Shown here in pieces: positions 10,840 through 29,624 of a DNA stretch of 33,974 bases. Within the stretch, counting starts at the first letter, position 1, and each line of letters opens with the position of its first letter. The position numbers were made by a program, and so were the translations under genes. Where the stretch lies: IMG/VR virus record IMGVR_UViG_3300025103_000076, positions 1-33,974 of that record; one strand, 5' to 3'. Source of the DNA: a virus (taxonomy: Duplodnaviria; Caudoviricetes). The notes under the pieces were generated by a model. That model was not told the origin of the DNA and made no database searches. It worked only from the letters and a program-made list of their open reading frames with translations.

Positions 10840-10870
10840 AATTTTTAATTTTTAATTGTTAAACTTGTTT

Positions 10871-12028
10871 TTAATAATTTTTAAGTCGAAATTTAGAGCT
10901 AGAACTAGTATCGCCGCTTATAACTCTCACTTTTTGACCTCCGGCAGTAACTTGGCCATCCGCAGATTTTCTTCCGTCTAAGTTTATATTCTTAGCTTCA
11001 GAAGTCATCTGTGTAATAGCATCGGCTTTGCCTTGTTCGTAAAAGTGATTAGCTAAAGCATCAGCGTTTCTCGCAGCAAACAAAGATTTATGGTAACCCT
11101 TAGCGTCTTGTAGTAAATTATCTTTACTAACATATTGACTGAAAACATTCATCACATCCGATTGGGATTTCTTTATTTCCTGCACATCTTTAACGTTATA
11201 ACGATATTTTTTGTCTCCAACTTGAAAATCAAAACCTTTGAATTTTTCATTAAAAACTTTGTCAGTTTCTTTGTTAAAATGTTTCTGTTGTTTCGCGTTT
11301 AAATCACTAGCTTGTCCTTGCTCATCGTTGTAGCGGTTGAAAAATTCTATAGCCTTTTGTTGATCTTTAGATAACTTCGAACCTAACTTAAGTTCTTGGT
11401 AATATTTACTCTTCAGAGTTTCCAAATGGTTTTTAGCTTGAACAACTGCCTCTTTATAAGCAAGTTTCTTTCTTTTTACATCCCTTGGTTCATCTGATTC
11501 TTCATCAAAAGCAAAATTATCTTCAATCATGAAGTTAACTTCGTCTGAAGAAAGATGAGGTTTTGTTGACTTGTAGTACTCTCGCAAGAGTGCTTCGTCA
11601 TCAACATTTGAGTAATCCGCATTGAGGCGGGCGTAATCCTCAATCGTTCCACCAGTCTCATTCATAAACTCCACGAGTTTCTCAATGTTTTCTGGTAGTT
11701 CCACTTCTGGAGCTTTATCTTCTATTTCTTCTTCAACTGTTTCTTCTGCTTCTTCAACAGATTCTTCAGTTTGTTCTTCCTCTGTGACTTCTTGTAAAGT
11801 AGGAACTTCAGTTTCTTCAACTTTTTCTTCTACTTTTTCTTCTTTCACAGGTTTTTCCACTTTTTCTTTAGTGGTTTCTTTTTCTACAGGTGGTTTACTT
11901 AAATCCACCTTGTAAGAACCGTCTTCCTGGAAGCCGGTATCTTTTTGAGGTTCTTCAATTACTTTAGCTTCGACTTTCTCGTCAGCTACTTGTTCAACAA
12001 CCTCTTTTTGTTGTTTTTCATTTGCCAT
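10871..12028 (-). CDS. Putative capsid scaffolding/assembly protein
   Basis: Acidic, low-complexity N-terminus and helical core, directly upstream of the MCP. Confidence 0.6.
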   Translation of the reverse strand: MANEKQQKEVVEQVADEKVEAKVIEEPQKDTGFQEDGSYKVDLSKPPVEKETTKEKVEKPVKEEKVEEKVEETEVPTLQEVTEEEQTEESVEEAEETVEEEIEDKAPEVELPENIEKLVEFMNETGGTIEDYARLNADYSNVDDEALLREYYKSTKPHLSSDEVNFMIEDNFAFDEESDEPRDVKRKKLAYKEAVVQAKNHLETLKSKYYQELKLGSKLSKDQQKAIEFFNRYNDEQGQASDLNAKQQKHFNKETDKVFNEKFKGFDFQVGDKKYRYNVKDVQEIKKSQSDVMNVFSQYVSKDNLLQDAKGYHKSLFAARNADALANHFYEQGKADAITQMTSEAKNINLDGRKSADGQVTAGGQKVRVISGDTSSSSKFRLKNY

Positions 12029-12060
12029 AATATAATATTATAAAATTAATTAATAAAAAT

Positions 12061-12420
12061 TTACTTCTTAGCGTAATACGCTATAATTTGTCCAGCAGCA
12101 CCTACATCAATTGATGTATATTTACCATAAATTGTACATCCAGCTGGTAAATCAAAATTTGTTGCATTTATTTGTACACCACCAGATCCTTCTGCTGTTG
12201 TTTCAGCGTCTGCAGCTAAATCATTAGCAGCATCTTCTGTATTTGCCCATCTTGTAGCTGTATCAGCAACTAAACCACCAGAAGCAGCAAAATCAGTTGC
12301 TACTAAAGCTGTTATAGCTACAAATACACAATCAGTTGGAGGTACTATAGGATCACCACCAGCTATCTGAAATGTAGATCCAGATATATTACCTGGAAAA
12401 GTTTTCATTCTTTGTTCCAT
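12061..12420 (-). CDS. Small beta-rich putative virion protein
   Basis: 119-aa ORF between portal and scaffold, ending LPAGCTIYGKYTSIDV..IIAY. Confidence 0.5.
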   Translation of the reverse strand: MEQRMKTFPGNISGSTFQIAGGDPIVPPTDCVFVAITALVATDFAASGGLVADTATRWANTEDAANDLAADAETTAEGSGGVQINATNFDLPAGCTIYGKYTSIDVGAAGQIIAYYAKK

Positions 12421-12446
12421 TGTTTTTTTGTTTTTTAAATGTTAAA

Positions 12447-14870
12447 TTACCTTGGCTCAAATTGTTCCAAGTCGAAACCGCCTAAACTGTCAAACCCAGC
12501 GGATTCAAACTTTTTAGATCCAGTATCCTTTTTTCTTTGTTCTATAAGTTCACTTTGTTGAGAAGCTTGTATTTTAGTTCTCTCATCTTTCCTATCTTCT
12601 TTATACTTCTCCTTATCTTTAATTACACTACTTTCTTGAGATTTAAGTTGCATATTTAATTCAAATTCTTTTTGCATTAAATCAAATTTAATTTGAGCTT
12701 CTTTTTCCATTTTCTTAATATCAAATTCAAGTTGTGCTTGATTAACACTAATCTTACTCTCTGTTAAAGCTTGTTCTTTTTCCATTTCAGCTTGAGCTGA
12801 TGCTTGAGCCGCTTGAGCATTAGATTCAGATTGAGCTTGTATATTTTGTTGTTGAATAGCTTGATCTTGTTCAAATTTCTTTCTTTTTCTAACCTTTAAT
12901 AACTGATTAGCTAATTTTAAATTCTTTATTTCTCTAACATCAATAGCATCTTCTAAGTTTATAGCTTGTTGCTGTAATGCCATTTGAATATTATTCTCTA
13001 ATTGTTGTTTTTGTTCTTCATCAGGAGCTAATTCTAAAAATATACCAAAATCATGAATATGTAATTTTTTAACTTCACTTAATGTTCCAACGTTGAATCT
13101 ACCTAAAGAAAGTACAAATTGATTTCTAGTATTAGAATATTCTAAAACATCAGATATTCTTAAAGATACCGCTTCAGCTGTTTTTAAAGCTAAGAAAACA
13201 CCAGCTTGTAAAATATGTCTAGTAGCTGTATTTGAGTTAGCAGCCGCAAGTTTTTGTAATCCAACCAATGATTGTTTGTCTGGCATACTACCATCTCTTG
13301 CTTCGTTAAGTCCAGTAACATCACGCATCATTTGTAAATAATAATTGTATGACTGTATTAAACTTTGTATCTTACCTTGACCTCCACTTGATTGTAATTC
13401 TTGAATCGGCATTCTAGCATTATTAAAATCACCATCCTGTGTCATTGATCTACCAATTACAGAACCAGTTTGGAAGTACATATTTAAAGCTTCTTGTGGA
13501 TTATAATTAGTTCCGTTACCTAAATCTATTTCAGCAAGTCCATCAGCGTCTAAATATACACCATCTGGAACTACTCTTGACATAACTTGTTGTAACTTTA
13601 AATGTGTTAACTGAATCATGTCAGCAAACGTTATCATTCTACCAACTAAAGATTCTGGTTTACCTTTATACATTCTTGGAGCAGTTATACAGTAACTCAT
13701 AGCTACTTTAGTTATATCTGCTTTAGGTCTAGTCATGTTTTCACATTTTTTCCATTCAAACAAATAATCATGACCAACTATTTTAACACCAGAATATAAA
13801 ACCTCTATAGATCTTTTTACTCTTTGAAATCTAGCTCTTTCGTCTTTAGGTGGATTAAATGTGTTATCTTTCTTTAAAGCTTTATCTCCACCGCTAGAAC
13901 CTTTCTTTAATTTATAAACTTGATCGTTGAAAGTTTTGTATTCAAAACGTAAAACATTAACATATCCTTTGTCATTTTCATGCGCAGATTTTTTATAATA
14001 ATTATATTTATCTGTATCAGGACCTTGATATTTCGTTTCTATGTCTTCAATATCTTCTATTGTTAATTCAGGAAATTGCTTTTTAAGATCTTTTATTTTT
14101 ACCCTTTCAACTTCACCAATATACCATAAATCATCAAAGTAAGGTGATTCACTATATGAAAAAACTAAATTAACAGGGTCTACATAATTTACCGTTATTC
14201 CTTCAGCGGTATTAAAACCATTTTTAACACAAGCTATTCCTAAAACAGTTAAATCATAATCTAAACGTTTCTTTAATAAATCATATTTATTAAGATTCAT
14301 TACGTTAGCTATAGCTTCTTCTTCTGCTATTTCAATAGATTGCTTATATTGTAATTGCATGTGAACAGATAATTCTTCATCATCTGTTGGTAAATTCATT
14401 GGATCGTTGTTGAAAGTATTAATACCAGTTTGTTCTTTAACATTTTCTTTAAAAGATCTAAACTGCATATCTTCTAATACACCTTCTATATAATCTGTTC
14501 TTCTTTTTGCAGACGCTGGATCAATAGAGAAAGCTTTTATATCATATAATCTTTCATTAATACCATTTACTACTATATCTACAAATTTAGGTATAATAGG
14601 TACTGGTTTCCAATCTAAATTAAGATAAGATAAATCACCGTTAATAGATAATTCATCTTTATATTTCTGTATTGATTGTTCTCCACGAGCGTATAATCTT
14701 AAATCATGATAACGAAGCTGCGTATCAAGATATCTCTCACTACCGCTATCAGTACCAAACCATTCAGCTTCTATGGCTCTTGCAACCTGCAATCCATATT
14801 TTTCATCAGATTTCTCAATATCAGGCACTGCCTGACTAGGAAATCCAGATTTTACTTGTGTTTTAATCAT
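12447..14870 (-). CDS. Portal protein
   Basis: LRLYARGEQSIQKYKDEL, LDWKPVPIIPKFVDIVVNG, RDVTGLNEARDG and a C-terminal coiled coil; immediately after TerL. Confidence 0.85.
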   Translation of the reverse strand: MIKTQVKSGFPSQAVPDIEKSDEKYGLQVARAIEAEWFGTDSGSERYLDTQLRYHDLRLYARGEQSIQKYKDELSINGDLSYLNLDWKPVPIIPKFVDIVVNGINERLYDIKAFSIDPASAKRRTDYIEGVLEDMQFRSFKENVKEQTGINTFNNDPMNLPTDDEELSVHMQLQYKQSIEIAEEEAIANVMNLNKYDLLKKRLDYDLTVLGIACVKNGFNTAEGITVNYVDPVNLVFSYSESPYFDDLWYIGEVERVKIKDLKKQFPELTIEDIEDIETKYQGPDTDKYNYYKKSAHENDKGYVNVLRFEYKTFNDQVYKLKKGSSGGDKALKKDNTFNPPKDERARFQRVKRSIEVLYSGVKIVGHDYLFEWKKCENMTRPKADITKVAMSYCITAPRMYKGKPESLVGRMITFADMIQLTHLKLQQVMSRVVPDGVYLDADGLAEIDLGNGTNYNPQEALNMYFQTGSVIGRSMTQDGDFNNARMPIQELQSSGGQGKIQSLIQSYNYYLQMMRDVTGLNEARDGSMPDKQSLVGLQKLAAANSNTATRHILQAGVFLALKTAEAVSLRISDVLEYSNTRNQFVLSLGRFNVGTLSEVKKLHIHDFGIFLELAPDEEQKQQLENNIQMALQQQAINLEDAIDVREIKNLKLANQLLKVRKRKKFEQDQAIQQQNIQAQSESNAQAAQASAQAEMEKEQALTESKISVNQAQLEFDIKKMEKEAQIKFDLMQKEFELNMQLKSQESSVIKDKEKYKEDRKDERTKIQASQQSELIEQRKKDTGSKKFESAGFDSLGGFDLEQFEPR

Positions 14871-17073
14871 TGTTTATTGCTTTTGATAACATACCTTTAT
14901 TGTTGTATTTTTTAAAACCAAAACTAACATTTGCTGTTGTTCTTTCTGGTCTTGGTCTATATAAATCTTTATTACATGCCATAATTGCTAATCCTGAACT
15001 AATAGTAGCATCAAACTTTGTTCTATTATTAATATCAAACCTAGCCCAGTCATTTAATGTTTTATTAAAACTTATATTACCGTAGTTTCCTTCTTCACCT
15101 GCACCGACATATTGTTGTATATAACTCTCTATAGCAGAAGCGTGAGCTTGTTTAATATCTTCACTTGAGTTTGGTATTCCACCAACTTCTCTTTCTGCAA
15201 CAGATAATTTGTTCCAAATTTTATCTGGTCTATTCATTGAAAATCCTCTATAACCTCTACGTTTTAAATAATATAAAAGTCTAGGTTTGTTATTTTCACA
15301 TAATATTGGCATTCCATAAAATACTAATGCCATTAAAACATCTTCAAAAAATATCTCAGCTGTTGCTGGTCTAGCTATATACTCTAAAAAGAAACTATTA
15401 GGTGGAGCATCTTCCATGGAAAACTTTGTTAATCCATGTAAAGCTCCATTAGATCCTTTACCATCTGTTGTTCCTGAAATATCATAAGAGTCACAACCAA
15501 AAGCTCCCATGTGTTCATTACCAGGATATTTTTTACCATTTTTAATGATAATATTGTTTTGTAACTTAAATGATGGTACCCAAGATAAATTAAAATTACC
15601 ATTTGAATCTGGAAAAAACTTTACTCTTGAATCTTTAATACCATTTTCCCAAACAAAACTTCCAATAATTGGATTTGGATTAATATCATTATAATCTATT
15701 TGTTCGTATATTTTAACTAAATTAAATATACTTCCTTTTGTTTCGTCTCTAAAAGCGTGTTCTTCAGTTCTAGGAAATTGACGATAAAATTCATTTAAAG
15801 CATCTTGATCGTTTTTTAATCCATCTGCTTCATTTTCCCAATGTTTAATAATTCCTGTGTCGATATATTCTCCATAAGGCCCTTCAACCTCTGTTTCTGG
15901 CGTATCGAATACAGGGTGTCCATAAGAATCAATGAATCCCTCGTAGTTCCATTCCATAGGTATGAACAAACTATATAATCCCGAGCTAGTCTGTCCGTTG
16001 CGGTTTCTTTGTGTAACATCTGAATTATTATATAGTTTCTTAAAATTATCACCACCTTTATCTAAAGCATTAGAAGTAGATCCCATCATACATTTTCCTA
16101 TAATTCTACTACCAAGTCTTAATGTGGTTTTTGTTACTCTCCAGTTATTTAATATATTATCTGGTCTTTCCCATTTACCACTTTCATCATGTGCTAATAA
16201 TTTTAGCTTTTCACCATCATAACTGTTATCTCCTGTGTTCTTCCAATCAATAGTTGTATCTAACCCTTGTAATTCTTCTAGTTTTTCATTACTAGTTATT
16301 TTTCTTCTAGTCAATTTACTAGCTGGTACTCTATATGCTAGTTCTGTTTTAGGTCGATCCATACCGTCTTGAATCGGTTTAAAGAAAAATGGATAATTAA
16401 CTGAAATTGGTACAACCTTATCAGTAAACATCTTTTTAGCATCAGCACCTGTTTTAGATAAAATACCATATCTTGAATCACTTGAGATAGTAGCTAAATT
16501 AACTATTTCCCCTGAAGCCATGAAAGAAAAACCAGAACGTCTATTCTTTAAATAACACATTCCATAACATCTAGTATCTGCTTTACATGCTTCCCAAAAG
16601 ATATAAAATATTCTATTTGCTTCTCTAAAATCTGGTTTACCTACATCAATTTTACTCCATTGTAAGTACATATAATGAGTACCTGTTATATATGTTGGTA
16701 CACCTTTGTTATAATACCAGAATCCTTCTTCTCTTCTTCTAAACTCTTCTTCTATATAATCTATATATTGATTTTTAAAATCATTAGGATATTCTTTCCA
16801 ATCAAATATAGTTTTAATTCTTTTTAATGCTTTAGGTTGCTCAGTTACCTGCCATTTGTCATTATCAAACTTTTTAATGTTCTTATATGTTGGTGGTAAT
16901 GCTACTTTGAGATTTTGTATCTCATATATATCACCTATTTGACCTGTTTTACTTATAACTATAATATCGTTTTCTTTATTATAACCATATTTCCACTTTT
17001 TAGACTTATTTAGTCTTTTTATAGTGTTTATTTTAACAGGTTGTATAACCTTATATAAAGTTTGTTTATACAT
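14863..17073 (-). CDS. terL: Terminase large subunit
   Basis: Walker A-like YLKNRRSGFS, Walker B LLAHDESGKW, GSTSN coupling motif, and nuclease-domain motifs GCDSYD and FDATISSGLA. Confidence 0.9.
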   Translation of the reverse strand: MYKQTLYKVIQPVKINTIKRLNKSKKWKYGYNKENDIIVISKTGQIGDIYEIQNLKVALPPTYKNIKKFDNDKWQVTEQPKALKRIKTIFDWKEYPNDFKNQYIDYIEEEFRRREEGFWYYNKGVPTYITGTHYMYLQWSKIDVGKPDFREANRIFYIFWEACKADTRCYGMCYLKNRRSGFSFMASGEIVNLATISSDSRYGILSKTGADAKKMFTDKVVPISVNYPFFFKPIQDGMDRPKTELAYRVPASKLTRRKITSNEKLEELQGLDTTIDWKNTGDNSYDGEKLKLLAHDESGKWERPDNILNNWRVTKTTLRLGSRIIGKCMMGSTSNALDKGGDNFKKLYNNSDVTQRNRNGQTSSGLYSLFIPMEWNYEGFIDSYGHPVFDTPETEVEGPYGEYIDTGIIKHWENEADGLKNDQDALNEFYRQFPRTEEHAFRDETKGSIFNLVKIYEQIDYNDINPNPIIGSFVWENGIKDSRVKFFPDSNGNFNLSWVPSFKLQNNIIIKNGKKYPGNEHMGAFGCDSYDISGTTDGKGSNGALHGLTKFSMEDAPPNSFFLEYIARPATAEIFFEDVLMALVFYGMPILCENNKPRLLYYLKRRGYRGFSMNRPDKIWNKLSVAEREVGGIPNSSEDIKQAHASAIESYIQQYVGAGEEGNYGNISFNKTLNDWARFDINNRTKFDATISSGLAIMACNKDLYRPRPERTTANVSFGFKKYNNKGMLSKAINND

Positions 17074-18405: not shown

Positions 18406-19314
18406 TTATTTTTTAACTGCTTTCTTTTTATTTACTACAATAAACCAGTTTTTATATTTATCTCTTTTTGTACATATATAATCGAGATATTTATCAACTT
18501 TTTCTCTCCAATCTTTATCTACTTTTGGATTTATAATACCAGATTTTGGACTAGAAAAACACTTATTTATAAATTCTTTTATCCTATGTTGATTATCAAA
18601 CAAATAATTATTTATACAAGCAAATGAACCTTGTTGTATACTATTCCAAGTATCTATTGGTGATATTGTTTTACCTAAAACCGCAGCATAAATAGCACTT
18701 TCACTAATATGAGTTGTGTAGACATGTTTTGCTTTTTGTAAATAATGATACATATCTACATCTCTAGGTAATATATTTTCTTCACCAAAAAAATCCTTTA
18801 ATTCACCAATAATTTGATGTGTTGTAATGGGATGTGGTTTAAAATATACGTTATTACCGTGAGATTTTGATATTTGTTTTAATCTATTCAAACAAACATT
18901 AGTTTTAACTTTATTTGAACCTGGTAATACTACTAAATAATCTTTTGGAGGATATTTCTCAAATGATTCTTTTCTACCTTGATATTTATTAGCATTTTTA
19001 GATAAAATATTTTCTACCAAATGATCTGTCCAATCATCTACGTCCTTAACATCATCATGCCAAGCATCTAACATCTGCTCATTTCTAAGCTTAGTGTTTA
19101 ATGGCTGCATGTAAAAATTAGTTGCGAACTCAGTATAAGCCATAGTTTTAAAGTAAGGCATTTCGTCAGCCATTACGTCGTAACTAGTTTCTAAACCTAG
19201 TTCACTACACTTTCTTATTAAATAACCTTCAACTGGTTCTAAGTCGTATAGTTTTTTATTCTTCTTGAGTGGTCCGATTCTACCGTCCAGCTCTTTTTTA
19301 TTAAACATTTGCAT
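18406..19314 (-). CDS. Putative glycosyltransferase, KpsS/KpsC capsule-biosynthesis-like
   Basis: YLVVLPG, VYFKPHP and YLQKAKHVYTTHISESAIYAAVLGKTI match the K-x-HP and V-x-T-x-x-S...A...GK pattern of the KpsS/KpsC-like C-terminal domain. Confidence 0.55.
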   Translation of the reverse strand: MQMFNKKELDGRIGPLKKNKKLYDLEPVEGYLIRKCSELGLETSYDVMADEMPYFKTMAYTEFATNFYMQPLNTKLRNEQMLDAWHDDVKDVDDWTDHLVENILSKNANKYQGRKESFEKYPPKDYLVVLPGSNKVKTNVCLNRLKQISKSHGNNVYFKPHPITTHQIIGELKDFFGEENILPRDVDMYHYLQKAKHVYTTHISESAIYAAVLGKTISPIDTWNSIQQGSFACINNYLFDNQHRIKEFINKCFSSPKSGIINPKVDKDWREKVDKYLDYICTKRDKYKNWFIVVNKKKAVKK

Positions 19315-19340: not shown

Positions 19341-19351
19341 TATATTATCAC
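19341..19351 (-). promoter_or_regulatory. Putative promoter motif GTGATAATATA (copy 2)
   Basis: Intergenic, about 27 nt upstream of the ATG at 19314; identical to 18369-18379. Confidence 0.5.
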
Positions 19352-19371
19352 ACATTTTTTGTGTTTTCTAC

Positions 19372-22300
19372 TTATGCCATGCTAGTTTCACCATCAAGTG
19401 GTTCTCTATTTGTGAAATCTTGTCTTTCTGTAGAATAATCTTTTACATATGCTCCACTATACCACCACCTAGTTGTATTCACTGTAGTAGTTGTAGTATA
19501 TGCTGTTGTTGTGGTTGTACTTGTGTTAAATGCTGTTGTAGTACTTTTACTAGTAGACCACGAAGTAGAAGTTGATTTACTTGTAGTCCAAGTCGTCGAA
19601 GTACCTTTATTAGTAGACCACGTGGTAGTATATGCTGTTGTTGTTGATGTTTGTGTGTTATATGTTGTTGTAGTACTAGTACTAGTGTTATAAGCAGTTG
19701 TAGTACTCTTGCTCGTTGATACAACAGTTGATGTTGCTTTTGATGTTAATGTACTAGTATTAAATACAGTGCTTGTTGCTGTGGTTGTATTATATACTGT
19801 ATTAGTGTTTTTACTTGTACTAACCACGGTGCTAGTACTAGTATTATATGTTGTAGTAGTATTAGTAGACGTGTTAAACGTGGTTGTTGTAGCAGTTGTT
19901 GTATTAAATGTTGTTGTGGTACTTTTACTTGTCTCATACGTTGTAGTTGTACTCTTAGTGGTTTCTACCACTGTACTAGTAGAAGTATTATAAGTAGTTG
20001 TGGTACTTTTTGTTGTATTATATGTTGTGTCTGTACTTCTATTTGTATTATAAACTGTAGTTGTTGTTGTAGAGGTATTATATGCCGTAGTAGTATTTTT
20101 ACTTGTTTGAACCACAGTGGTTGTACTCGTATTATAAGTTGTAGTGGTATCAGTAGATGTATTATACGTAGTAGTAGTACTTTTATTAGTACTCCATGTC
20201 GTTGTAGTAGATTTACTAGTACTCCAAGATGTATTTGTACTTTTACTAGTCTCAACTACAGTACTAGTTGAAGTATTATATGTCGTAGTGGTATCTGTAC
20301 TAGTATTATAAGTAGTAGTAGTATTTTTACTAGTTTGCCATGTAGTAGCTGTACTCTTGCTTGTTTCTACTACAGTTGCTGTAGATCTTGTTGTATCTTT
20401 AGATGTATTAAAAGTTGTCGTAGTATTCTTACTAGTACTTACAACAGTAGCAGTTAATTTTTCAGTACTCGTACTAGTGTTATAAGTTGTGCTAGTAGTT
20501 TTACTTGTTGATACTACCGTGTTTGTACTTTTACTCGTACTAACCACTGTGTCAGTAGAGGTATTATACGTTGTCGTAGTATTAGTAGATGTATTATACG
20601 TTGTAGTTGTTGATGTACTTGTATTAAAGGTAGTAGATGTAGATTTAGTTGTTTCATATGTAGTCGTTGTACTCTTACTAGTTTCTACAACTGTACTTGT
20701 ACTAGTGTTGTAAGTAGTTGTGGTGTTAGTACTAGTATTGTAAACAGTATTAGTAGCTGTACTTGTATTAAATGTAGTCGTTGTGTTTTTACTAGTAGAC
20801 ACCACTGTAGCTGTTGACTTGCTAGTTTGAACAACAGTAGATGTACTAGTATTATAGGTTGTCGTAGTAGCGGTTTGAGTATTATAAGTGGTTGTAGTTG
20901 ACTTATTAGTGCTCCACGCTGTTGTAGTTGACTTACTAGTTTCGTAAGTTGTTGTTGTTGATTTACTAGTAGATACCACTGTCGTAGTTGATGTATTATA
21001 TGTTGTAGTAGTATTTTTAGTAGTATTATATGTTGTATCAGTACTTCTTGACGTGTTATAAACAGTTGTAGTTGTTGTAGATGTGTTAAACGCAGTACTA
21101 GTTGATTTAGTAGTTTCTACTACAGTGTTGGTACTAGTGTTATAAGTAGTCGTAGTGTTAGTAGATGTATTATAAGTAGTTGTCGTGTTAGTTGAAGTAT
21201 TATAAACAGTATTTGTAGATTTACTAGTGGATACTACTGTATTAGTTGATTTAGATGTTTCATATGTAGTAGTAGTACCTTTATCTGTTTCAACAACAGT
21301 ACTTGTAGATGTATTATAAGTGGTAGTAGTTGCAGTTGTAGTATTAAATGCAGTAGTAGTTGACTTACTAGTACTCCAACTAGTAGCAGTACTTTTGCTA
21401 GTAGACCAAGTTGTGTTAGTTGATTTACTTGTTGAAACAACCGTACTTGTACTCGTATTATAAGTTGTAGTGGTATTAGTTGAGGTGTTATAAACAGTAT
21501 TCGTAGACTTACTAGTGCTCCAAGTTGTATTAGTAGATTTACTAGTTTCTACAATAGTATTTGTTGATTTACTTGTCGATACAACTGTAGAAGTAGAAGT
21601 ATTATAAGTGGTAGTAGTATTAGTGGATGTGTTATACGTTGTTGTGGTTGCAGTACTAGTATTATATGTAGTAGTTGTGTTTTTACTTGTTGATACTACC
21701 GTAGCTGTTGCGGTACTAGTGTTATATGTAGTCGTAGTATTCTTATTTGTTGAGACAACAGTACTAGTAGCTGTATTATAAGTTGTTGTAGTATTTTTAG
21801 ATGTACTAACTACAGTAGTAGTTGAAGTTGCAAAACTAGTACTCATTGTAGTCTCGGTATTAGTACTAGTATTATATGTTGTTGTTGTTGTTTTATTAGT
21901 GGACACTACAGTTGCAGTGGCTTTACTCGTAGATACTACCGTGCTTGTAGATGTATTATAAGTCGTTGTTGTGTTAGTAGACGTATTATAAGTAGTTGTC
22001 GTAGCTGTACTAGTATTCCATGTAGTAGTGGTAGACTTTGAAGTACTCCACGTAGTAGTAGTACTTTTGGATGTACTAACCACAGTGCTCGTAGAAGTAT
22101 TATACGTAGTAGTAGTATCTTTAGTTGTATTATATGTTGTGTTTGTACTCCTAGCAGTATTATATACCGTAGTAGTGTCTGTTGACGTATTAAATACTGT
22201 GCTAGTTGATTTACTTGTACTAACTACTGTAGATGTTGATGTATTATATGTAGTCGTAGTATTTGTAGAGGTATTATAAGTTGTTGTTGTAGCTGTTTGA

Positions 22301-23598
22301 GTATTGTATGTTGTAGATGTATTTTTACTAGTAGATACAACAGTATTCGTAGATTTACTAGTTGATACAACTGTAGCGGTTGCTTTACTAGTACTAACTA
22401 CAGTTGATGTACTAGTGTTGTACGTAGTTGAAGTGGCTGTTGTTGTATTGTATGATGTTGTAGTATTCTTGTTTGTAGACCACGTAGTTGTGGTGCTTTT
22501 ACTCGTACTTACTACAGTAGCAGTGGCTTTACTCGTTTGAACAACTGTTGAAGTAGATGTGTTATAAGTAGTAGTAGTTGCTGTTGTTGTATTATAAGTG
22601 GTTGTAGTATTTTTACTTGTACTCCACGTTGTATTAGTAGACTTACTTGTGGATACAACGGTAGATGTTGTTTTACTAGTTTCCACAACTGTACTTGTAG
22701 AAGTATTGTATCTAGTAGTAGTTGCTGTGGTGGTATTATATTCTGTAGTTGTACTAGTACTTGTATTATAAGCTGTTGTAGTTAATGTATTGGTTGAGGT
22801 ATTGTATGTAGTGGTAGTAGTTGTACTTGTATTCCATGTAGTTGTAGTATTTTTTGAAGTACTCCAAGTCGTTGTATACTCAGTTGTTGTTGAGGTAGAT
22901 GTATTATATGTAGTTGTTGTATTAGTACTTTTATCAGTTTCTTGAATTTGGGTGGTAGTTGACGTATTATAAGCTGTTGTGGTATTAGTAGCCGTACTTG
23001 TATTCCAATTAGTAGTATATTGTGTAGTAGTTGTTGTTGTAGTAGATGTATTATACGTGGTTGTAGTAGTTGTACTAGTAGCTGTATTATAAGTAGTAGT
23101 GTAATCTGTGTTAGTAGTTTTGCTAGTTGTAGTACTTGTATTATATGTAGTTGTTGTATTAGTTGTTTTGTCTGTTTCATACGCAGTACTCCAAGTTGTA
23201 GTTGTAGATCTCTGCGTCTCAGTGGTAGTATTATATGCAGTATTCCAAGATGTAGTTGTAGTTCTTGAAGTATCTGTACTTGTATTATATACAGTGGTTC
23301 TACTAGTAGCCCACGTAGTAACGTGATTAGTTGAGATAACAGTACTACTTGATGTTGAAGTATCTCTATGTGTTTGTCTTGAGGTACCAGTAGAGGTACT
23401 TTTTGATGTACTCCAAGTTGTGTCTGTGTTTCTATTAGTATTTTTAGTAGTACCACGATTTGTTAATCTATATGTATTTTGAGTTGTTTGCCAAGTTGTA
23501 GTAGTTGTAGTATTAATAATATACAGTATGTGTGGCGTTAGAATTCTACGCCAAATATCGAAAAAACTACCAAGAGGATTTAATGATATACTATGCAT
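19372..23598 (-). CDS. Giant Thr/Ser-rich repeat protein B (1408 aa)
   Basis: 4.2 kb uninterrupted ORF of ~10-aa units with variable synonymous codons; short unique termini; start overlaps the upstream stop (ATGCATAG). Confidence 0.85.
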   Translation of the reverse strand: MHSISLNPLGSFFDIWRRILTPHILYIINTTTTTTWQTTQNTYRLTNRGTTKNTNRNTDTTWSTSKSTSTGTSRQTHRDTSTSSSTVISTNHVTTWATSRTTVYNTSTDTSRTTTTSWNTAYNTTTETQRSTTTTWSTAYETDKTTNTTTTYNTSTTTSKTTNTDYTTTYNTATSTTTTTTYNTSTTTTTTTQYTTNWNTSTATNTTTAYNTSTTTQIQETDKSTNTTTTYNTSTSTTTEYTTTWSTSKNTTTTWNTSTTTTTTYNTSTNTLTTTAYNTSTSTTTEYNTTTATTTRYNTSTSTVVETSKTTSTVVSTSKSTNTTWSTSKNTTTTYNTTTATTTTYNTSTSTVVQTSKATATVVSTSKSTTTTWSTNKNTTTSYNTTTATSTTYNTSTSTVVSTSKATATVVSTSKSTNTVVSTSKNTSTTYNTQTATTTTYNTSTNTTTTYNTSTSTVVSTSKSTSTVFNTSTDTTTVYNTARSTNTTYNTTKDTTTTYNTSTSTVVSTSKSTTTTWSTSKSTTTTWNTSTATTTTYNTSTNTTTTYNTSTSTVVSTSKATATVVSTNKTTTTTYNTSTNTETTMSTSFATSTTTVVSTSKNTTTTYNTATSTVVSTNKNTTTTYNTSTATATVVSTSKNTTTTYNTSTATTTTYNTSTNTTTTYNTSTSTVVSTSKSTNTIVETSKSTNTTWSTSKSTNTVYNTSTNTTTTYNTSTSTVVSTSKSTNTTWSTSKSTATSWSTSKSTTTAFNTTTATTTTYNTSTSTVVETDKGTTTTYETSKSTNTVVSTSKSTNTVYNTSTNTTTTYNTSTNTTTTYNTSTNTVVETTKSTSTAFNTSTTTTTVYNTSRSTDTTYNTTKNTTTTYNTSTTTVVSTSKSTTTTYETSKSTTTAWSTNKSTTTTYNTQTATTTTYNTSTSTVVQTSKSTATVVSTSKNTTTTFNTSTATNTVYNTSTNTTTTYNTSTSTVVETSKSTTTTYETTKSTSTTFNTSTSTTTTYNTSTNTTTTYNTSTDTVVSTSKSTNTVVSTSKTTSTTYNTSTSTEKLTATVVSTSKNTTTTFNTSKDTTRSTATVVETSKSTATTWQTSKNTTTTYNTSTDTTTTYNTSTSTVVETSKSTNTSWSTSKSTTTTWSTNKSTTTTYNTSTDTTTTYNTSTTTVVQTSKNTTTAYNTSTTTTTVYNTNRSTDTTYNTTKSTTTTYNTSTSTVVETTKSTTTTYETSKSTTTTFNTTTATTTTFNTSTNTTTTYNTSTSTVVSTSKNTNTVYNTTTATSTVFNTSTLTSKATSTVVSTSKSTTTAYNTSTSTTTTYNTQTSTTTAYTTTWSTNKGTSTTWTTSKSTSTSWSTSKSTTTAFNTSTTTTTAYTTTTTVNTTRWWYSGAYVKDYSTERQDFTNREPLDGETSMA
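19470..23510 (-). repeat. Degenerate ~30-bp (10-aa) coding repeat array
   Basis: Units [YFW]NTSTxTxTT and [VWY][SEQ]TSKxTxTT, with 8-aa units at N-to-K transitions. Confidence 0.9.
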
Positions 23599-24631
23599 TA
23601 CTTATTGATTTTCTTATTAATACTTTATTTACAAAATAATTGAAATCTGATTGTATCTCATATATAACATGAACTTCATTGTTTTCAGAATTATCAAAAT
23701 TATTACTTGTTACTTCTACTTCCCCATCTAAGGTGTATAAAATATCACCAGCCACAACGTCTTTTAAAACTACATCGATCCAATTATTATTTCTTTTTAC
23801 TACCATGGGTAGTTTAGCACTACCGCTTATTAAATTAGTGTTTAATGTAAATACACCTTGACATTTCATAACCCTACATTCAACTCCTGATTTAAGTTCT
23901 AAACTAGGATTAGAAGGATCCGCACAAGAAAGTACGCTACTTTCATAGTTAGGAGTATATTTAATATCAACGCTACTAGAATCACTATCATATATTACAG
24001 AACCAGCTTTAACACCAAAACCCTCTGTTCTAGTAAGTGTATATAAAGGTACATAATATTTATCTCTATTATAATAAGTGTTCTCTACAGGATCTACAGC
24101 TACCTCAGTAAAAGATACATTATCCCAATAAAACATCATCCATTCGTCTGTTGTTCCACCACTAAAATTCCACCAACTAATTTTACATGTACTATTAGCT
24201 TTTTGTTTACAAAAATATCTAAAATCTTTATGTAAATCATCATCTACATATGTATCCATTAATATTGCGTCATATCTAGTTGTTTCTTCAGATAATAAAT
24301 CTATCCACTTACCTTCCTTAATAATTACATTAGATTTATCAGCTGCCCACGCTTTTAATTTTACTATTATTTCCGGATGGCATTCAACTATAGTATGTGA
24401 AGCAGGGTTTCTAGCTTGAACAGCAGTAGATAATATACCCATTCCGAAACCACACTCTAACACATGATCTCCCGCGGCTACAGCAACTTCTGCCATTTTT
24501 TCCATAATAGGTTGTTCCCAAGACATCATTATCTCTCTAGTATCATTTAATTCTGGACAATGATATGTTATCTTATCATCTGTAAATGTTAAGTTAGCTG
24601 CTAAATATGAATCTCTAAATCTATGTGCCAT
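23591..24631 (-). CDS. SAM-dependent methyltransferase (Rmt2/GAMT-like) fused to a degenerate Hint domain
   Basis: IMMSWEQPIM, motif I VLECGFGMG, HTIVECHPEI and YDAILMDTY; the C-terminal ~140 aa follow a Hint-like layout. Confidence 0.75.
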   Translation of the reverse strand: MAHRFRDSYLAANLTFTDDKITYHCPELNDTREIMMSWEQPIMEKMAEVAVAAGDHVLECGFGMGILSTAVQARNPASHTIVECHPEIIVKLKAWAADKSNVIIKEGKWIDLLSEETTRYDAILMDTYVDDDLHKDFRYFCKQKANSTCKISWWNFSGGTTDEWMMFYWDNVSFTEVAVDPVENTYYNRDKYYVPLYTLTRTEGFGVKAGSVIYDSDSSSVDIKYTPNYESSVLSCADPSNPSLELKSGVECRVMKCQGVFTLNTNLISGSAKLPMVVKRNNNWIDVVLKDVVAGDILYTLDGEVEVTSNNFDNSENNEVHVIYEIQSDFNYFVNKVLIRKSISNA

Positions 24632-24644
24632 AGTTAATTATTTA

Positions 24645-27600
24645 TTATTGACATCCTCTAAAACAATCTCCACCGCCTCCATCTGTTTGAGTTTGTGTAC
24701 TAGTATTATAATACGAAACATAATGTGTATTATAAGTTGTTGTATACGCAGTAGAAAAAGTGGTTAATGTTGAAGTTGTTGTATTATACGTAGTGGTTGT
24801 GTTAACATTCCACGATGTAGTATATATTGTTTGGGTTAAAAAAGTTGTAGTAGTAGAGGTATTATATGCAGTGGTTGTAGAGGTGTTAAATACAGTGGTG
24901 GTGGTAGTATTATATGCGGTGCTCCAAGTTGTAGTTGTAGATTTTGAAGTCTGAGTAGCGGTATTATATGCGGTAGTCCAAGTTGTAGTTGTGCTTCTAG
25001 TGGTGTCAGTACTTGTGTTATAAGTAGTAGTGGTTTCTGTTGATGTGGAGGTATTATATGCGGTACTCCAAGATGTAGTTGTATTTCTGTTTGTTACAGT
25101 ACTTGTATTATACGTTGTAGTAGTATTAGTAGTTGTACTTGTATTATATTGAGTTGTAGTATTAGTTGTTTTACTGTATAACGTACTAGTGCTTACCACG
25201 GTATTTGTACTAGTGCTTGTTGACGTATTATAAGCTGTAGTTGTAGAAGTATTATATGTTGTTGTTGTGGTAGTAGAGGTACTTGTATTATAATTGGTTG
25301 TTGTTGCCTTAGTTGTGAGTGTACTAGTATTCCACGTAGTAGTAGTATTCTTGCTAGTACTCCAAGTAGTTGTGGTAGATTTAGTTGTGTTATATGCTGT
25401 TGAAGTCAATGTACTAGTACTTGTATTATACGCCGTTGTTGTCGACTTAGTTGTTGATGAAGTTTCATCTGTACTCCTAAGAGTGCCCCATGATGTTGTT
25501 GTAGCAGTATTATATGTGGTTGTAGTATCTGTACTTGTGTTATACACGGTTGTTGTGCTTGTGGTAGTATTAAAGGTGGTGGAAGTACTCTTACTTGTAG
25601 AAACAATTGTGTTAGTAGATTTTGAAGTTTCTACTACAGTAGACGTTGCTGTATTATACGTAGTTGTTGTATCAGTTGAAGTATTATATGTAGTGGTTGT
25701 TGCTGTTGAAGTATTAAATACAGTATTAGTAGATTTACTTGTACCCCAAGTTGTATTAGTATTTTTACTTGTAGAAACAACTGTTGTTGTAGCAGTGTTG
25801 TAAGTTGTGGTGGTATTAGTTGAAGTATTGTATGTGGTCGTAGTTGCAGTAGTGGTGTTAAAGGTTGTTGAAGTATTTTTACTTGTAGAAACAACTGTGT
25901 TAGTTGATTTACTAGTACTTACGACTGTAGCTGTTGCTTTAGATGTACTTACAACTGTTGTTGTAGCTGTATTATATGTAGTTGTTGTATTCTTACTAGT
26001 ACTCCATGTAGTAGATGTTGTTTTTTGAGTATTATATGTAGTATTGGTTGATCTACTAGTATTATAAGTAGTTGTAGTGGTTTTACTTGTTTCAACTACT
26101 GTGCTAGTGGCTGTATTATAGGTTGTTGTTGTTGACGTACTAGTGTTAAATGTAGTAGTAGTGTTTTTATTAGTACTCCATGTTGTAGTTGTTGATTTGC
26201 TTGTTTCGTAGGTTGTAGTAGTTGACTTGCTAGTACTAACAACCGTTGTTGTACTTGTATTATACGTGGTAGTGGTATTAGTACTAGTGTTAAAAGTTGT
26301 CGTTGTATTTGTTGACGTATTATATTGAGTACTTGTATTAATATTTGTTGTAGTACTAGTGTTATAAGTCGTACTAGTACTTGTATTAAACGTTGTGGTT
26401 GTGCTTTTAGATGTACTAACAGTAGTAGTAGTACTTGTATTATAAGTCGTTGTTGTAGCAGTAGAGGTATTATAAGTCGTCTCTGTGTTTGTACTTGTAT
26501 TAAATACTGAGCTAGTTGTCTTACTAGTAGACACCACTGTTGATGTAGATTTACTAGTCTCATATGTTGTGGTAGTTGCTTTACTAGTGCTTACTACAGT
26601 TGTTGTCGCTGTATTGTAAGTTGTTGTAGTTGCGGTGGTGGTATTAAAAGTTGTAGTTGTAGCAGTGGTGGTATTAAATGTAGTAGTGGTATTTTTATTA
26701 GTACTCCAAGTGGTGGTTGTTGATTTATTTGTACTAACCACTGTATCTGTACTTGTATTATAAACAGTTGTTGTTGCTGTAGTTGTATTAAACGTTGTCG
26801 TCGTATCTGTACTAGTATTAAATGTTGTTGTGGTTGATTTACTAGTTTGCCACGTTGTATTTGTGTTTTTACTTGTGCTTACTACCGTACTAGTGGAAGT
26901 ATTATATACTGTAATTGTACCTTTTTGAGTATTGTATGTAGTAGTTGTGGCGGTAGATGTGTTATAAGTTGTAGTAGTATTCTTATTAGTTTCATAAGCG
27001 GTTGTTGTACTTTTACTAGTAGATACTACTGTCGCTGTAGTTTTACTAGTCGATACAACTGTAGTAGTTTGGGTATTATACGTAGTTGTGGTATTTTTAC
27101 TAGTTTCCCAAGTTGTAGTAGTTGACTTTGTAGTGTTATAAGTCGTATTAGTGCTTCGATCGGTATTATAGGTTGTCGTGGTGGATTTTGAAGTTTCTAC
27201 TACTGTAGACGTACTAGTATTATATGTGGTTGTAGTACTGGTACTAGTATTAAAAGTTGTAGTTGTTGCTGTGCTAGTGTTAAACGTTGTAGTAGTTGAC
27301 TTACTTGTAGAAACAACAGTATTAGTACTTTTATTAGTCTCAACAACTGTTGATGTAGCGGTGTTGTATGTAGTTGTTGTATCAGTACTTGTGTTAAAAG
27401 TAGTTGTCGTGGATTTACTAGTGCTCCATGCTGTACTTGTACTTTTAGATGTAGATACAACCGTTGCTGTTGCTTTACTTGTAGAAATAACAGTTGTTGT
27501 AGCGGTATTAAACGTTGTAGTAGTAGATTTACTAGTTTCATATGTAGTAGTAGTGTTCTTACTAGTTTCATATGTTGTTGTGGTAGATTTACTCGTACTT

Positions 27601-28760
27601 ACTACTGTTGCTGTAGCTTTACTAGTTGATACTACTGTACTCGTACTAGTATTATACGTTGTTGTAGTTGCAGTTGTCGTATTGAACGTAGTGGTTGTAT
27701 TTGTGCTAGTATTAAAGGTAGTATTAAAAATAGTGGTTGTATTTGTGCTAGTATTATATACAGTGGTTGTACTAGTACTTGTGTTCCATGTAGTAGTATA
27801 AGTAGTTATTGTATTAGTACTTGTATTATACGTGGTGGTAGTAGTAGTAGAAGTATTAAATTCTGTAGATGTTGATTTGCTAGTAGATACTACCGTAGCA
27901 GTGGCTTTATTAGTACTTATTACAGTTGTAGTACTAGTATTGTATGTGGTAGTGGTTGCTGTTGAAGTGTTAAAAGTAGTAGTAGTTGCTGTACTAGTAT
28001 TAAATGTTGTAGTCGTAGACTTGCTAGTTTCAACCACAGTTGCAGTTGCTTTAGATGTACTAACAACAGTTGTGGTACTAGTGTTATAAGTTGTTGTAGT
28101 AGCAGTACTAGTATTCCAAGTGGTTGTAGTACTTTTTGTTGTATTATAAACAGTATTTGTACTTCGATCAGTATTATACGTAGTAGTTGTTGATTTAGTA
28201 GTTTCAACAACAGTGCTAGTAGAAGTATTATATGTAGTGGTTGTGTTAGTACTTGTGTTGTAGGTAGTAGTAGTACTTTTACTGGTGCTCCACGTTGTGT
28301 TTGTGGACTTACTAGTAGATACAACTGTGGCGGTTGCTTTTGAAGTTTCTACTACAGTTGTTGTAGATGTGTTGAATGTTGTGGTGGTAGCTGTTGTAGT
28401 ATTATAAGCTGTGCTAGTGTTTTTGTTTGTTGCCCAAGCTGTAGTATACTCTGTCGTAGTGTTTGTCGCAGTGTTATATACTGTACTTGTACTTTTACTA
28501 GTCTCATACGTAGTTGTAGTACTTTTACTTGTAGATACTACAGTATTAGTTGATTTACTAGTTATTGTACTAGTATTAAAAACTGTAGTAGTAGTTGTAG
28601 ATGTATTAAAAGACGTTGTGGTATTGGTACTAGTATTAAAGGTTGTGGTTGTGGATTTTGAGGTAGCCCATTGAGTACTAGTAGACGCTGTAGTAGCTGT
28701 TGATGCAGCTGTACTTTTTGTCCACCAGTCTTTTTTCCAGAATCCTAACCATTTTGCCAT
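24645..28760 (-). CDS. Giant Thr/Ser-rich repeat protein A (1371 aa)
   Basis: 4.1 kb uninterrupted ORF using the same unit vocabulary as protein B; Trp-rich N-terminus and a GGGGDCFRGCQ C-terminus. Confidence 0.85.
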   Translation of the reverse strand: MAKWLGFWKKDWWTKSTAASTATTASTSTQWATSKSTTTTFNTSTNTTTSFNTSTTTTTVFNTSTITSKSTNTVVSTSKSTTTTYETSKSTSTVYNTATNTTTEYTTAWATNKNTSTAYNTTTATTTTFNTSTTTVVETSKATATVVSTSKSTNTTWSTSKSTTTTYNTSTNTTTTYNTSTSTVVETTKSTTTTYNTDRSTNTVYNTTKSTTTTWNTSTATTTTYNTSTTTVVSTSKATATVVETSKSTTTTFNTSTATTTTFNTSTATTTTYNTSTTTVISTNKATATVVSTSKSTSTEFNTSTTTTTTYNTSTNTITTYTTTWNTSTSTTTVYNTSTNTTTIFNTTFNTSTNTTTTFNTTTATTTTYNTSTSTVVSTSKATATVVSTSKSTTTTYETSKNTTTTYETSKSTTTTFNTATTTVISTSKATATVVSTSKSTSTAWSTSKSTTTTFNTSTDTTTTYNTATSTVVETNKSTNTVVSTSKSTTTTFNTSTATTTTFNTSTSTTTTYNTSTSTVVETSKSTTTTYNTDRSTNTTYNTTKSTTTTWETSKNTTTTYNTQTTTVVSTSKTTATVVSTSKSTTTAYETNKNTTTTYNTSTATTTTYNTQKGTITVYNTSTSTVVSTSKNTNTTWQTSKSTTTTFNTSTDTTTTFNTTTATTTVYNTSTDTVVSTNKSTTTTWSTNKNTTTTFNTTTATTTTFNTTTATTTTYNTATTTVVSTSKATTTTYETSKSTSTVVSTSKTTSSVFNTSTNTETTYNTSTATTTTYNTSTTTTVSTSKSTTTTFNTSTSTTYNTSTTTNINTSTQYNTSTNTTTTFNTSTNTTTTYNTSTTTVVSTSKSTTTTYETSKSTTTTWSTNKNTTTTFNTSTSTTTTYNTATSTVVETSKTTTTTYNTSRSTNTTYNTQKTTSTTWSTSKNTTTTYNTATTTVVSTSKATATVVSTSKSTNTVVSTSKNTSTTFNTTTATTTTYNTSTNTTTTYNTATTTVVSTSKNTNTTWGTSKSTNTVFNTSTATTTTYNTSTDTTTTYNTATSTVVETSKSTNTIVSTSKSTSTTFNTTTSTTTVYNTSTDTTTTYNTATTTSWGTLRSTDETSSTTKSTTTAYNTSTSTLTSTAYNTTKSTTTTWSTSKNTTTTWNTSTLTTKATTTNYNTSTSTTTTTTYNTSTTTAYNTSTSTSTNTVVSTSTLYSKTTNTTTQYNTSTTTNTTTTYNTSTVTNRNTTTSWSTAYNTSTSTETTTTYNTSTDTTRSTTTTWTTAYNTATQTSKSTTTTWSTAYNTTTTTVFNTSTTTAYNTSTTTTFLTQTIYTTSWNVNTTTTYNTTTSTLTTFSTAYTTTYNTHYVSYYNTSTQTQTDGGGGDCFRGCQ
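24690..28670 (-). repeat. Degenerate ~30-bp (10-aa) coding repeat array
   Basis: Same N-type and K-type units as in protein B. Confidence 0.9.
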
Positions 28761-28772
28761 GTGTCATTTTTT

Positions 28773-29624
28773 TTAAGAGAAGTCACCAATATAATTTACA
28801 AATACTTTATTTGTTGCTAAAACAATATATGATAGTACTGATGACTTGCTATTACCAGTTACAAAATTCACTGTTGCTCCAGAAGGAGTGTGCATATAAC
28901 TAGGTAATGCAGCAAAAGCTACGGTACCAGAAGAAGCGTTATTAATTATTATATTACCAGATTGTCCAACATTATCAGAGGTAATAGTTAAAGCTATGGT
29001 ATTTGTAGCAGCGTTAGCATTTATAATAAAATTATCATTTAAACTTAAATCACAAGTATGTGTATTGGTAGAATGAGTAACAGTTGTTACAGTTCTACGT
29101 AAATTTTTTGTTACTAAAACAGTACCTTGGAATAAACCATCAGAAGCTATATCTTGAATAGCATAAACTAATCCTGTTGATGGAGTTCCTTTATGTGTTT
29201 TATATGTTAATGTTAAATCATAAAAATCACTATTACTACTATTAACAGCTATATTACTTACCCAATATGCACCCCATATATTACGATCATTTAATTCTAC
29301 TATAACTATGTCTCTATTTGCTAATACATTTAAAGCATCTGGAGCCATAATATCACTACAATTATCATAATGATATTTACTTACTGTTATACTTGTAATA
29401 CTTGCCCAAGCAGAACTATCTGATGAAAACTCCCCACATCCATCTGCAGTACTCATATATTGCCAAGCAAATCTTATAGATGATCCAACAGCATTTGTAG
29501 CATCCATCCAGGCTGCAATATCTTTTACTTGATAGTTTCTAGTTGTCGAACCTTGATCTGATCCAAGAAGTTTGTCTGTTCCATGAATAACTTGATCTAC
29601 AGCTATATTTTTAATCTTAGGCAT
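28773..29624 (-). CDS. Putative fibre/appendage structural protein
   Basis: N-terminus DKLLGSDQGSTTRNY resembles virion-attachment segments. The C-terminal beta domain (CDLSLNDNF..GQSGNIIIN..VLSYIV) resembles phage fibre tip domains. Confidence 0.5.
   Translation of the reverse strand: MPKIKNIAVDQVIHGTDKLLGSDQGSTTRNYQVKDIAAWMDATNAVGSSIRFAWQYMSTADGCGEFSSDSSAWASITSITVSKYHYDNCSDIMAPDALNVLANRDIVIVELNDRNIWGAYWVSNIAVNSSNSDFYDLTLTYKTHKGTPSTGLVYAIQDIASDGLFQGTVLVTKNLRRTVTTVTHSTNTHTCDLSLNDNFIINANAATNTIALTITSDNVGQSGNIIINNASSGTVAFAALPSYMHTPSGATVNFVTGNSKSSVLSYIVLATNKVFVNYIGDFS

Follow-up and report, generated by a model that had tools for sequence, protein, structure and literature searches.

In the needle at the tip of the T4 long tail fibre, each chain of gp37 gives a hairpin, and metal is bound through His. 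The needle (PDB 2XGF) has three chains and six strands, and the available excerpts of the sources place lambda Stf and Bizionia C24 beside it (PMC7291167; PMC12028318). Here we analyse a virus record of 33,974 bases (IMG/VR IMGVR_UViG_3300025103_000076; hereafter the window), ~56% complete and with every gene on the minus strand, in which two Thr-rich proteins, A and B, very probably pair as an antiparallel beta-strand zipper, likely a long thin virion fibre whose register would be set by a side-chain code. Such a zipper would resemble the gp37 needle in placing long antiparallel strands in a phage fibre. Unlike the needle, however, its arms are two gene products, ~1300 residues each instead of some tens and half Thr, its register is an aperiodic basic:aromatic code, the paired span of A is without His, and no PDB sequence is matched (a profile of 18 A segments retrieved 0 sequences at E<=1, a search that low complexity limits). 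The zipper may work like the gp37 needle, but judged by those features that are open to testing, namely arms in separate genes, absence of a His core and lack of any match in sequence, it is not a member of that group.

Designed beta-hairpins carry cross-strand cation-pi, aromatic and Thr-Thr pairs on one face, within 10-20 residues of one chain; the zipper would be a natural, evolving two-gene code with the same types of side-chain pairs. In the stalk of streptococcal antigen I/II, two distant repeat regions of one chain run antiparallel, as an alpha-helix and a polyproline helix with a tip domain between them, whereas the proposed zipper has an aperiodic residue-by-residue code split into two genes. 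Peptidase_S74/ICA domains act as trimers, and the clients described in the available part of PMC8326128 are parallel homotrimeric triple beta-helices. As in the tail fibres and tailspikes chaperoned by these domains, an S74 domain also ends A in one clade of relatives, although Pfam detected none in A of the window, and unlike the known clients a zipper client would need an antiparallel partner chain. The TLP-12 glycofibril of alveolates is described, in the accessible portion of a preprint, as a parallel homotrimer of Gly-Ser dodecapeptides (pattern Gly-Ser-x-x-Ser) with a Ser/Thr glycan coat (bioRxiv 10.1101/2025.09.30.679562). It would share with the zipper a thin beta fibril of simple repeats and, at the C-terminal end of candidates, an ICA domain; the zipper differs in its 3 Gly per paired span, its units of 8, 10 or 14 residues and its antiparallel hetero-match, while the same portion of the preprint gives TLP-12 no complementary partner or positional code. 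No description of a pair or hairpin of the present kind was found in the literature searched, most subscription journals being outside its scope. A sequence-only reading of this DNA had stated that no such system was known, which stands to that extent, but the arrangement is not unique to this genome, hairpin relatives exist, and the gp37 needle is a precedent.

Mirror order of proteins A and B

The genes, landmarks and terminal elements of the pair are as follows (all on the minus strand).

24645..28760, minus: protein A, 1371 aa, putative outgoing zipper strand, paired span residues 26-1341 (open reading frame, ORF, and register)
19372..23598, minus: protein B, 1408 aa, putative returning strand, paired span ~ residues 50-1366 (ORF and register)
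28164..28166, minus: A landmark Arg199, pairing with the region of B landmark 3 (codon position)
27156..27158, minus: A landmark Arg535 (codon position)
26052..26054, minus: A landmark Arg903 (codon position)
22150..22152, minus: B landmark Arg483 (codon position)
21046..21048, minus: B landmark Arg851 (codon position)
20038..20040, minus: B landmark Arg1187 (codon position)
22909..22971, minus: sole odd-length unit of B (21 aa, residues 210-230), site of the register shift from 1392 to 1391 (unit tokenisation and alignment)
28719..28760, minus: aromatic/basic N-terminal peptide of A, residues 1-14, kept in kind among relatives, likely the attachment end
23515..23595, minus: N-terminal non-repeat extension of B, 27 residues, absent from most relatives (sequence comparison)
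24651..24665, minus: C-x-R-G-C motif after a Gly run at the C-terminal end of A, where the hairpin turn would sit (in 19/36 A proteins)

Thr makes up 48% of A and 46% of B, and both consist of repeat units 8, 10 or 14 residues long. The paired span of each protein holds only 3 Gly and 0 Pro, and His occurs there 0 times in A and twice in B; the N-x-S/T triplets number 93 in A and 98 in B. Neither protein is named by a family in Pfam, PHROGs or NCBIfam.

The mirror match of A read forwards against B read backwards was confirmed. The landmark Arg residues are spaced 336 and 368 residues apart in A and 368 and 336 in B, and all three sums of facing positions are 1386. The sequence-only reading had claimed this order, had placed the ends of both ORFs correctly, and had located each landmark by the third base of its codon. 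It had also divided both proteins into N-type units (aromatic residue followed by NTST) and K-type units (with TSK), and on re-tokenisation the runs of these units behind landmarks 2 and 3 came out as it had listed them, with the caveat that A609, one unit of a run of three N-type units, has Lys. Irregularities likewise face each other, a YTTA insert lying opposite the Lys of FNTSTLTSKATSTV.

Among 1980 antiparallel offsets, residue-class mutual information peaked at i+j=1388 and 1392. At 1388, a unit start of B faces 119 of the 125 unit starts of A in the paired span; 97 of these 119 are N:K or K:N, but 21 are N:N and 1 is K:K, and the two-letter code proposed earlier is an approximation only. 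At 1392 (1391 beyond A1174), 136 of 138 K/R/H residues lie opposite Y/F/W over 1316 positions, words of five residues coincide without offset (YNTST facing the reversed VSTSK), and each landmark has Tyr and a basic residue on both strands, forming a double pair. The informative alphabet is therefore at the residue level, basic opposite aromatic and Thr opposite Thr, four residues off the unit starts, and not N/K. The single one-residue shift in the whole A:B register is a bulge at the 21-residue unit of B.

Shuffling did not reproduce this complementarity: the ungapped pair count was 121, compared with a mean of 34 and a maximum of 48 in 1000 unit shuffles of B, and with a mean of 45 and a maximum of 74 in 1000 shuffles of its 29 N-run/K-run blocks, and the complementarity was also far above that of offset strings. 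Across the window and its relatives, scores of a pairing matrix were 219-1706 for antiparallel pairs and 26-73 for the parallel control, and parallel mutual information peaked at internal offsets (0.645 over 766 residues). Simple duplication, which would give parallel order, is rejected as the cause, since A and B have shared units and same-strand DNA words and yet these yield no mirror order. An inversion or reversal of DNA was also rejected, gene A having 0 16-mers in common with the reverse complement, reverse or complement of B and 238 on the same strand. No exact DNA repeat is longer than 27 nt in gene A or 30 nt in gene B, and the copies of A and B in other assemblies differ by 0-1 substitutions (0/0 in locus L172, 1/1 in L001, 0 for B in L170), which disposes of an assembly artefact or repeat collapse.

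Covariation among relatives and single-chain hairpins

Relatives were collected by scanning IMG/VR with the unit pattern (25 stretches), an alignment of the glycosyltransferase-like (GT-like) protein encoded after B (best 80 of 256) and the methyltransferase encoded between A and B (2 and 61 loci). A Thr-rich ORF was present at 73 of the best 80 GT loci, and the other 7 loci end within ~220 bases upstream of the gene. Two Thr-rich ORFs were present at 50 distinct loci from these scans; 39 loci were complete, and 36 non-redundant pairs remained after removal of 3 duplicates. The 11 loci left out comprise 9 with an ORF cut by the contig end, the frameshifted L004 and the cut L130; among them L004, L010, L012 and L074 have high fractions of complementary pairs (80-97%), and L086 (18/65) and L130 (14/47) score low because their overlap is mostly non-repeat domain.

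Both length and unit order covary between A and B. The lengths of the Thr-rich parts (394-1631 aa) correlate with r=0.999 (n=36), as they do in 18 disjoint genome-pair contrasts (r=0.999), and 35 of the 36 A proteins score best with the B of their own genome, the one exception involving a near-identical sister genome. Using a pairing matrix trained on 5 pairs, 2765 of 2845 K/R/H residues lay opposite Y/F/W in the 31 held-out pairs, with an aligner that rewards basic:aromatic pairs; the ungapped fraction, which involves no training, had a median of 0.83 for own pairs (n=39) and 0.33 for 1482 cross pairs. The main-register paired spans of the 36 pairs are 373-1522 residues long with 0-2 one-residue shifts each and one 24-residue shift (L124). 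Shuffled strings, offset strings and the lengths and orders of homologues thus all failed to refute antiparallel co-assembly, the central proposal of the sequence-only reading. In the L048 clade, the repeats of the B proteins (L049, L056, L060, L063, L097) are near-palindromic in code, and B scores high against itself reversed.

Distant homologues of the GT-like protein are found in 26 cultured phage records. In four of the six phages examined, a single Thr-rich protein whose halves obey the basic:aromatic rule is encoded just upstream of the GT-like gene: KVP40.0254 (9 pairs; 0/2000 shuffles as good; register centred on a Lys-Gly turn), MYOV011v1_p0320 of Vibrio phage 6E35.1a (12 pairs; 0/2000; centred on a C-G-K-G-V-C loop), Lullwater gp41 (10 pairs; 3/2000; centred on a six-residue Pro-rich loop) and DCM gp43 (9 pairs; 35/2000). 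The latter two genes, of Caulobacter podoviruses, lie directly behind an annotated tail fibre gene. Because the hairpin registers are centred on a turn or loop, we read the basic:aromatic pairs as direct cross-strand neighbours, and the same evidence suggests that the terminal Cys motif of A is the old tip loop. In the window the arms are encoded by two genes and not as one hairpin chain; since the hairpin relatives stand beside the common GT-like gene, A and B are likely to be the two arms of an ancestral hairpin split at its tip, with the Cys-closed tip loop having stayed on A.

Several smaller observations concern these hairpins. The hairpin gene of 6E35.1a (L165:2461-2994) is annotated as a 'putative cell wall mannoprotein' and is the first gene of an island that also holds QueC-like, NAMPT and radical SAM genes, and the sister record L164 has three spurious-looking ORFs in its place. 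Small proteins P0006-P0009 combine the KVP40.0254-type N-terminal domain with a short Thr-rich hairpin, like miniature zippers, and the tip of P0006 carries an inserted domain; the precomputed GP38 label of P0010 was not reproduced by a Pfam scan. An AlphaFold2 model of KVP40.0254, made with no alignment, had a predicted local distance difference test (pLDDT) score of 38, too low for use.

The pairs have a common anatomy. Residues alternate strictly between two faces, one 64% Thr and bearing nearly all F, Y, W, K, R and H, the other T, S, N, A and V; on this small-residue face F, Y and K are each <=0.2% (24,000 positions per face). Two residues away from a basic or aromatic one, in either direction, the facing residue is Thr in 83-99% of cases, and the His of relatives sits on the aromatic-paired face. 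The N-terminus of A and the C-terminus of B lie at the same zipper end, each with a conserved non-repeat motif. At the other end, the 36 A proteins close with a Gly run and C-x-R-G/N-C (19), a small domain with an S74-like tail (11; Peptidase_S74 above the cut-off in 5, weak in 2, none in 4) or a Gly-rich RGGG tail (5). The Arg of the Cys motif in relatives falls 0-10 residues past the first residue of B in the final register (in L028 and L123, by the second or the same register); the window deviates because of the N-terminal extension of B. This extension is aromatic and amphipathic-looking and identical in L001, L170 and L172, at a place where most relatives begin MPNTTT; B of L030 has a similar aromatic leader of ~23 residues. 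A domain of ~140-180 residues is inserted near the same end, one clade carrying it in A and another in B; past the domain the register picks up again, shifted by +147 and +144 (in A) or -130, -167 and -182 (in B); of these five pairs examined, four are clear and L030 is weak. As read from these sequences, the predicted duplex is organised like a stem that is interrupted by bulges and internal loops and capped by a terminal loop.

Internal duplications of A (137/473/841) are mirrored in B (1142/806/438). Between genomes, similarity correlates in parts predicted to touch (A-proximal/B-proximal, rho 0.67; A-distal/B-distal, 0.50) more than at the two ends of one gene (A-proximal/A-distal, 0.10; B-proximal/B-distal, 0.19), all four values being descriptive, as the genome pairs are non-independent. 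For example, L058 and L059 have the proximal part in common (0.98, 0.98) but not the distal part (0.38, 0.39), and L065 and L069 show the opposite. Genome similarity thus appears to track predicted contact, not gene, which is consistent with cassette exchange: since the distal part consists of the 3' end of A and the 5' end of B, flanking the methyltransferase gene, one exchange would swap both tip strands. Length and tip would then change by matched duplications and by exchange of this central cassette (A 3' end, methyltransferase, B 5' end). A mosaic B of 303 aa in L025, the first ~280 bases of which are 92% like L082 and the rest 99.8% like the window, with the join near landmark 3, also agrees with such exchange, though it may be an assembly chimera; its A is off the contig, and among the copies found, all window-like, there was no short A of the kind predicted to match it.

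Fibre models and their rivals

Physical assembly of A with B is what we infer from the covariation. As pairing in the 1392 register is the sole reading that accounts for it, A and B very probably pair in this way, the aperiodic cation-aromatic order fixing a unique register and length. From geometry, the 1316 pairs would correspond to a fibre of ~240-430 nm: ~240 nm for a six-stranded barrel of shear 12, ~350 nm for one of shear 6 and ~430 nm for a flat ribbon. Gene context and the tail-fibre chaperones on A favour a virion fibre, which would probably be docked on an upstream fibre/adaptor domain through the aromatic N-terminus of A and the C-terminal motif of B, extending reach or carrying tip domains. 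The S74 domains on A and the strict small-residue face slightly favour three A:B ribbons (A3B3) that would join as a needle of six strands, its small-residue face turned inwards; otherwise a single ribbon would be formed. Glycosylation of the fibre by the GT-B protein is guessed from the linkage of their genes and has about an even chance of being right. Complex predictions of three copies of A167-246 with three of B1146-1225 (18-row alignments) scored 0.00 twice while the controls were unfolded, and were used neither way.

A less probable arrangement keeps the register but pairs one A with one B in a two-stranded twisted ribbon, a monomer on the tip of a trimeric fibre, whose small face would accept glycans in the manner of a bottle-brush. 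The 93 and 98 N-x-S/T triplets, the Ser/Thr/Asn-rich face and the GT-B gene that follows both B (36/36 pairs) and the hairpins of cultured phages would suit it, as would the N-terminal domain that KVP40.0254 has in common with small adhesin-like proteins (one bearing the unreproduced GP38 label). However, trimer chaperones of the S74 type end A in 5 of the 11 tails, the near exclusion of large residues and ~15% Ala/Val/Ile/Leu/Gly on the small face fit burial equally well, and the GT fold resembles CMP-sugar transferases that extend glycans, not protein N-glycosyltransferases. It is improbable that the zipper forms a non-virion filament, freed at lysis or on the infected cell as a decoy, exclusion or aggregation factor. 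The two modifying enzymes that travel with the zipper would then modify the filament, the Vibrio-phage hairpin does lie in a modification-gene island far from tail genes, and the 94 particle proteins given in the available part of PMC12028318 do not include VP6E351A_0314, the homologue of the GT-like protein; but the window and 35 relatives place the zipper after a fibre/adaptor gene amid virion and lysis genes, the Caulobacter podoviruses carry the hairpin gene immediately after that of the tail fibre, A is fused to chaperone domains of the tail-fibre kind, and no signal peptide is evident by eye in the zipper proteins. Hardly any credence is left for A and B folding separately, as solenoids or disordered mucin-like chains, with the mirror as a by-product of ~10- and ~48-residue periodicity, inversion or assembly. 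The periodicity is strong, with side peaks 10 and 48 residues from the main register, and near-palindromic repeats in some relatives do score high against themselves; yet block shuffles that keep the periodicity reach at most 74 of 121 pairs, DNA-level inversion and long exact repeats are absent, partner specificity and length covariation extend across 36 genomes, the register is kept through irregular units and around inserted domains, and a paired span with just 3 Gly and no Pro lacks the turns that a solenoid would need. Computationally, separate folding is refuted as the source of the mirror pattern.

All of the evidence here comes from sequence, and some results weigh against the preferred reading of A and B as a virion fibre, and of its trimeric form. 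Since A of the window has neither an S74 domain nor His in its paired span, its own sequence gives no trimer or metal core. The self-pairing scores are sizeable (A:A 924, B:B 1027, compared with 1706 for A:B), and off-register pairing must be avoided in vivo. A hidden Markov model of the upstream adaptor domain, compared with 7 cultured-phage proteins, gave weak matches at best (Cr30 gp253 domain E 2e-4; Lullwater gp40 0.04), and pairwise BLAST was not significant. Two of the six cultured neighbours have no hairpin (for Cr30 gp254, 92% of shuffles are as good; in DLP6 no such gene is annotated), none of the six has the two-gene form, and the Vibrio-phage hairpin is away from tail genes, inside its modification island. 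In the available text and Tables S4 and S8 of PMC12028318, the 6E351A virion proteome is non-decisive, as its gene set has three other ORFs replacing the hairpin.

Taken as a virion fibre, the zipper probably represents an undescribed and widespread fibre class of two chains or arms with an aperiodic, nucleic-acid-like code, extending up to ~1,600 residues and having RNA-stem-like bulges and loops. In this class, the code would set the register and length of a fibre several hundred nm long that evolves by compensatory duplication and cassette exchange. The new elements are a Flavobacteria-phage module with 36 pairs, its split-hairpin link to cultured phages through the common GT-like gene, the tip-loop remnant, the similarity pattern that follows contact rather than gene, and the S74 argument for a trimer. 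If true, this would be natural protein-protein recognition by readable linear complementarity over >1000 residues, otherwise the province of nucleic acids and of short protein cases, and beta-sheet design, in which strand pairing and length could become programmable, would gain thousands of cross-strand pairs already tested by evolution. Being several times as long as a podovirus particle, the fibre could alter the encounter rates of marine phages, and Caulobacter phage Lullwater gp41 and Vibrio phage KVP40.0254 would be cultured models for testing structure and role. Zipper genes are also a blind spot: they have no family match, and the gene calls behind a published virion proteome overlooked one of them.

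Linked genes, genome setting and host

The layout of the locus is fixed in the 36 pairs. First comes a protein ending in a conserved ~110-aa domain (35/36, the remaining locus being truncated), then A, then a methyltransferase-like gene or two such genes, then B and last the GT-like gene (36/36). In the window the neighbouring features are the following.

28773..29624, minus: fibre/adaptor protein, its ~110-aa C-terminal domain preceding A in 35/36 pairs (one locus cut off); likely zipper docking site
23591..24631, minus: GAMT-like methyltransferase, encoded between A and B; its C-terminal Hint-like domain lacks the splicing residues (profile matches)
18406..19314, minus: GT-B-fold protein nearest CMP-sugar (Kdo/sialyl) transferases, directly after B in 36/36 pairs (model and fold match)
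9367..17073, minus: virion structural protein, portal and large terminase of Flavobacteria-type tailed phage, as context (PHROGs and terminase matches)

The upstream domain appears to be a portable adaptor without family match. It stands alone (123-124 aa) in L069, L084, L100 and L139 and elsewhere ends proteins of up to 1406 aa.

The GT-like protein (18406-19314) has a GT-B fold nearest that of CMP-sugar transferases (KpsC, WbbB, KrkA, polysialyltransferase), with moderate scores: its model (pLDDT 70) matched KrkA (E 1.2e-4) and KpsC (6.6e-4) in Foldseek, and in VIA aligned with 5wc6 at Z 9.7 and a root-mean-square deviation of 3.6 over 136 aligned residues and with WbbB/KpsC at Z 8.5-8.8, a UDP-GlcNAc epimerase being tied (Z 9.1). 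An FKPHP stretch, presumably nucleotide-binding, is invariant in 12 GT-like sequences.

The methyltransferase has an S-adenosylmethionine-binding core at positions 39-205 (3orh_A, E 1.9e-12) and is GAMT/RMT2-like. Its Hint-like half has weak intein matches but lacks the features of self-splicing: in the 8 full-length rows the domain begins with Gly in place of a Cys/Ser nucleophile and does not end in His-Asn. Judged by gene length, this C-terminal half (~24300-23591) accompanies A proteins with a C-x-R-G-C end and is missing beside those with an S74 tail. Some loci have the methyltransferase next to fibre genes of other kinds and no zipper, so it is a looser member of the module. In L132, L135, L146, L148 and L149, which have no zipper, a short GAMT-like gene is flanked by a very long fibre gene on one side and, on the other, by the gene for a Ser/Gly-rich protein of ~190 aa that ends in a Gly-rich Arg-Gly tail. 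The conserved Arg in Gly-rich C-terminal tails, which recurs beside this enzyme, is, speculatively, a candidate substrate of the methyltransferase.

PHROGs names in the window include large terminase, portal, virion proteins, holin and a GroES-like gene. The terminase matched 87 cultured phages at up to ~44% identity, 86 of which infect Flavobacterium, Cellulophaga, Tenacibaculum or Maribacter, and marine Flavobacteriaceae phages bearing GroEL are described in the available part of PMC5332604. From the terminase relatives and this comparison, we infer that the host of the window phage belongs to the Flavobacteria. No relative of the GT-like protein and no unit-pattern match was found in GTDB genomes, so prophages give no host. 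In the ESM Atlas the best value was 0.88, in viral clusters, to be taken as a lead only. Two GroES-like genes, one of 195 aa (PHROG match) and one of 85 aa (by eye), fall in the regions 17293-17880 and 31713-33528, and a GroEL-like gene at 31957-33528 was read by eye from the sequence, with no database result behind it. GC skew changes sign only across A and B (window positions 19001-28000), a by-product of Thr codons that provides a cheap marker for such genes.

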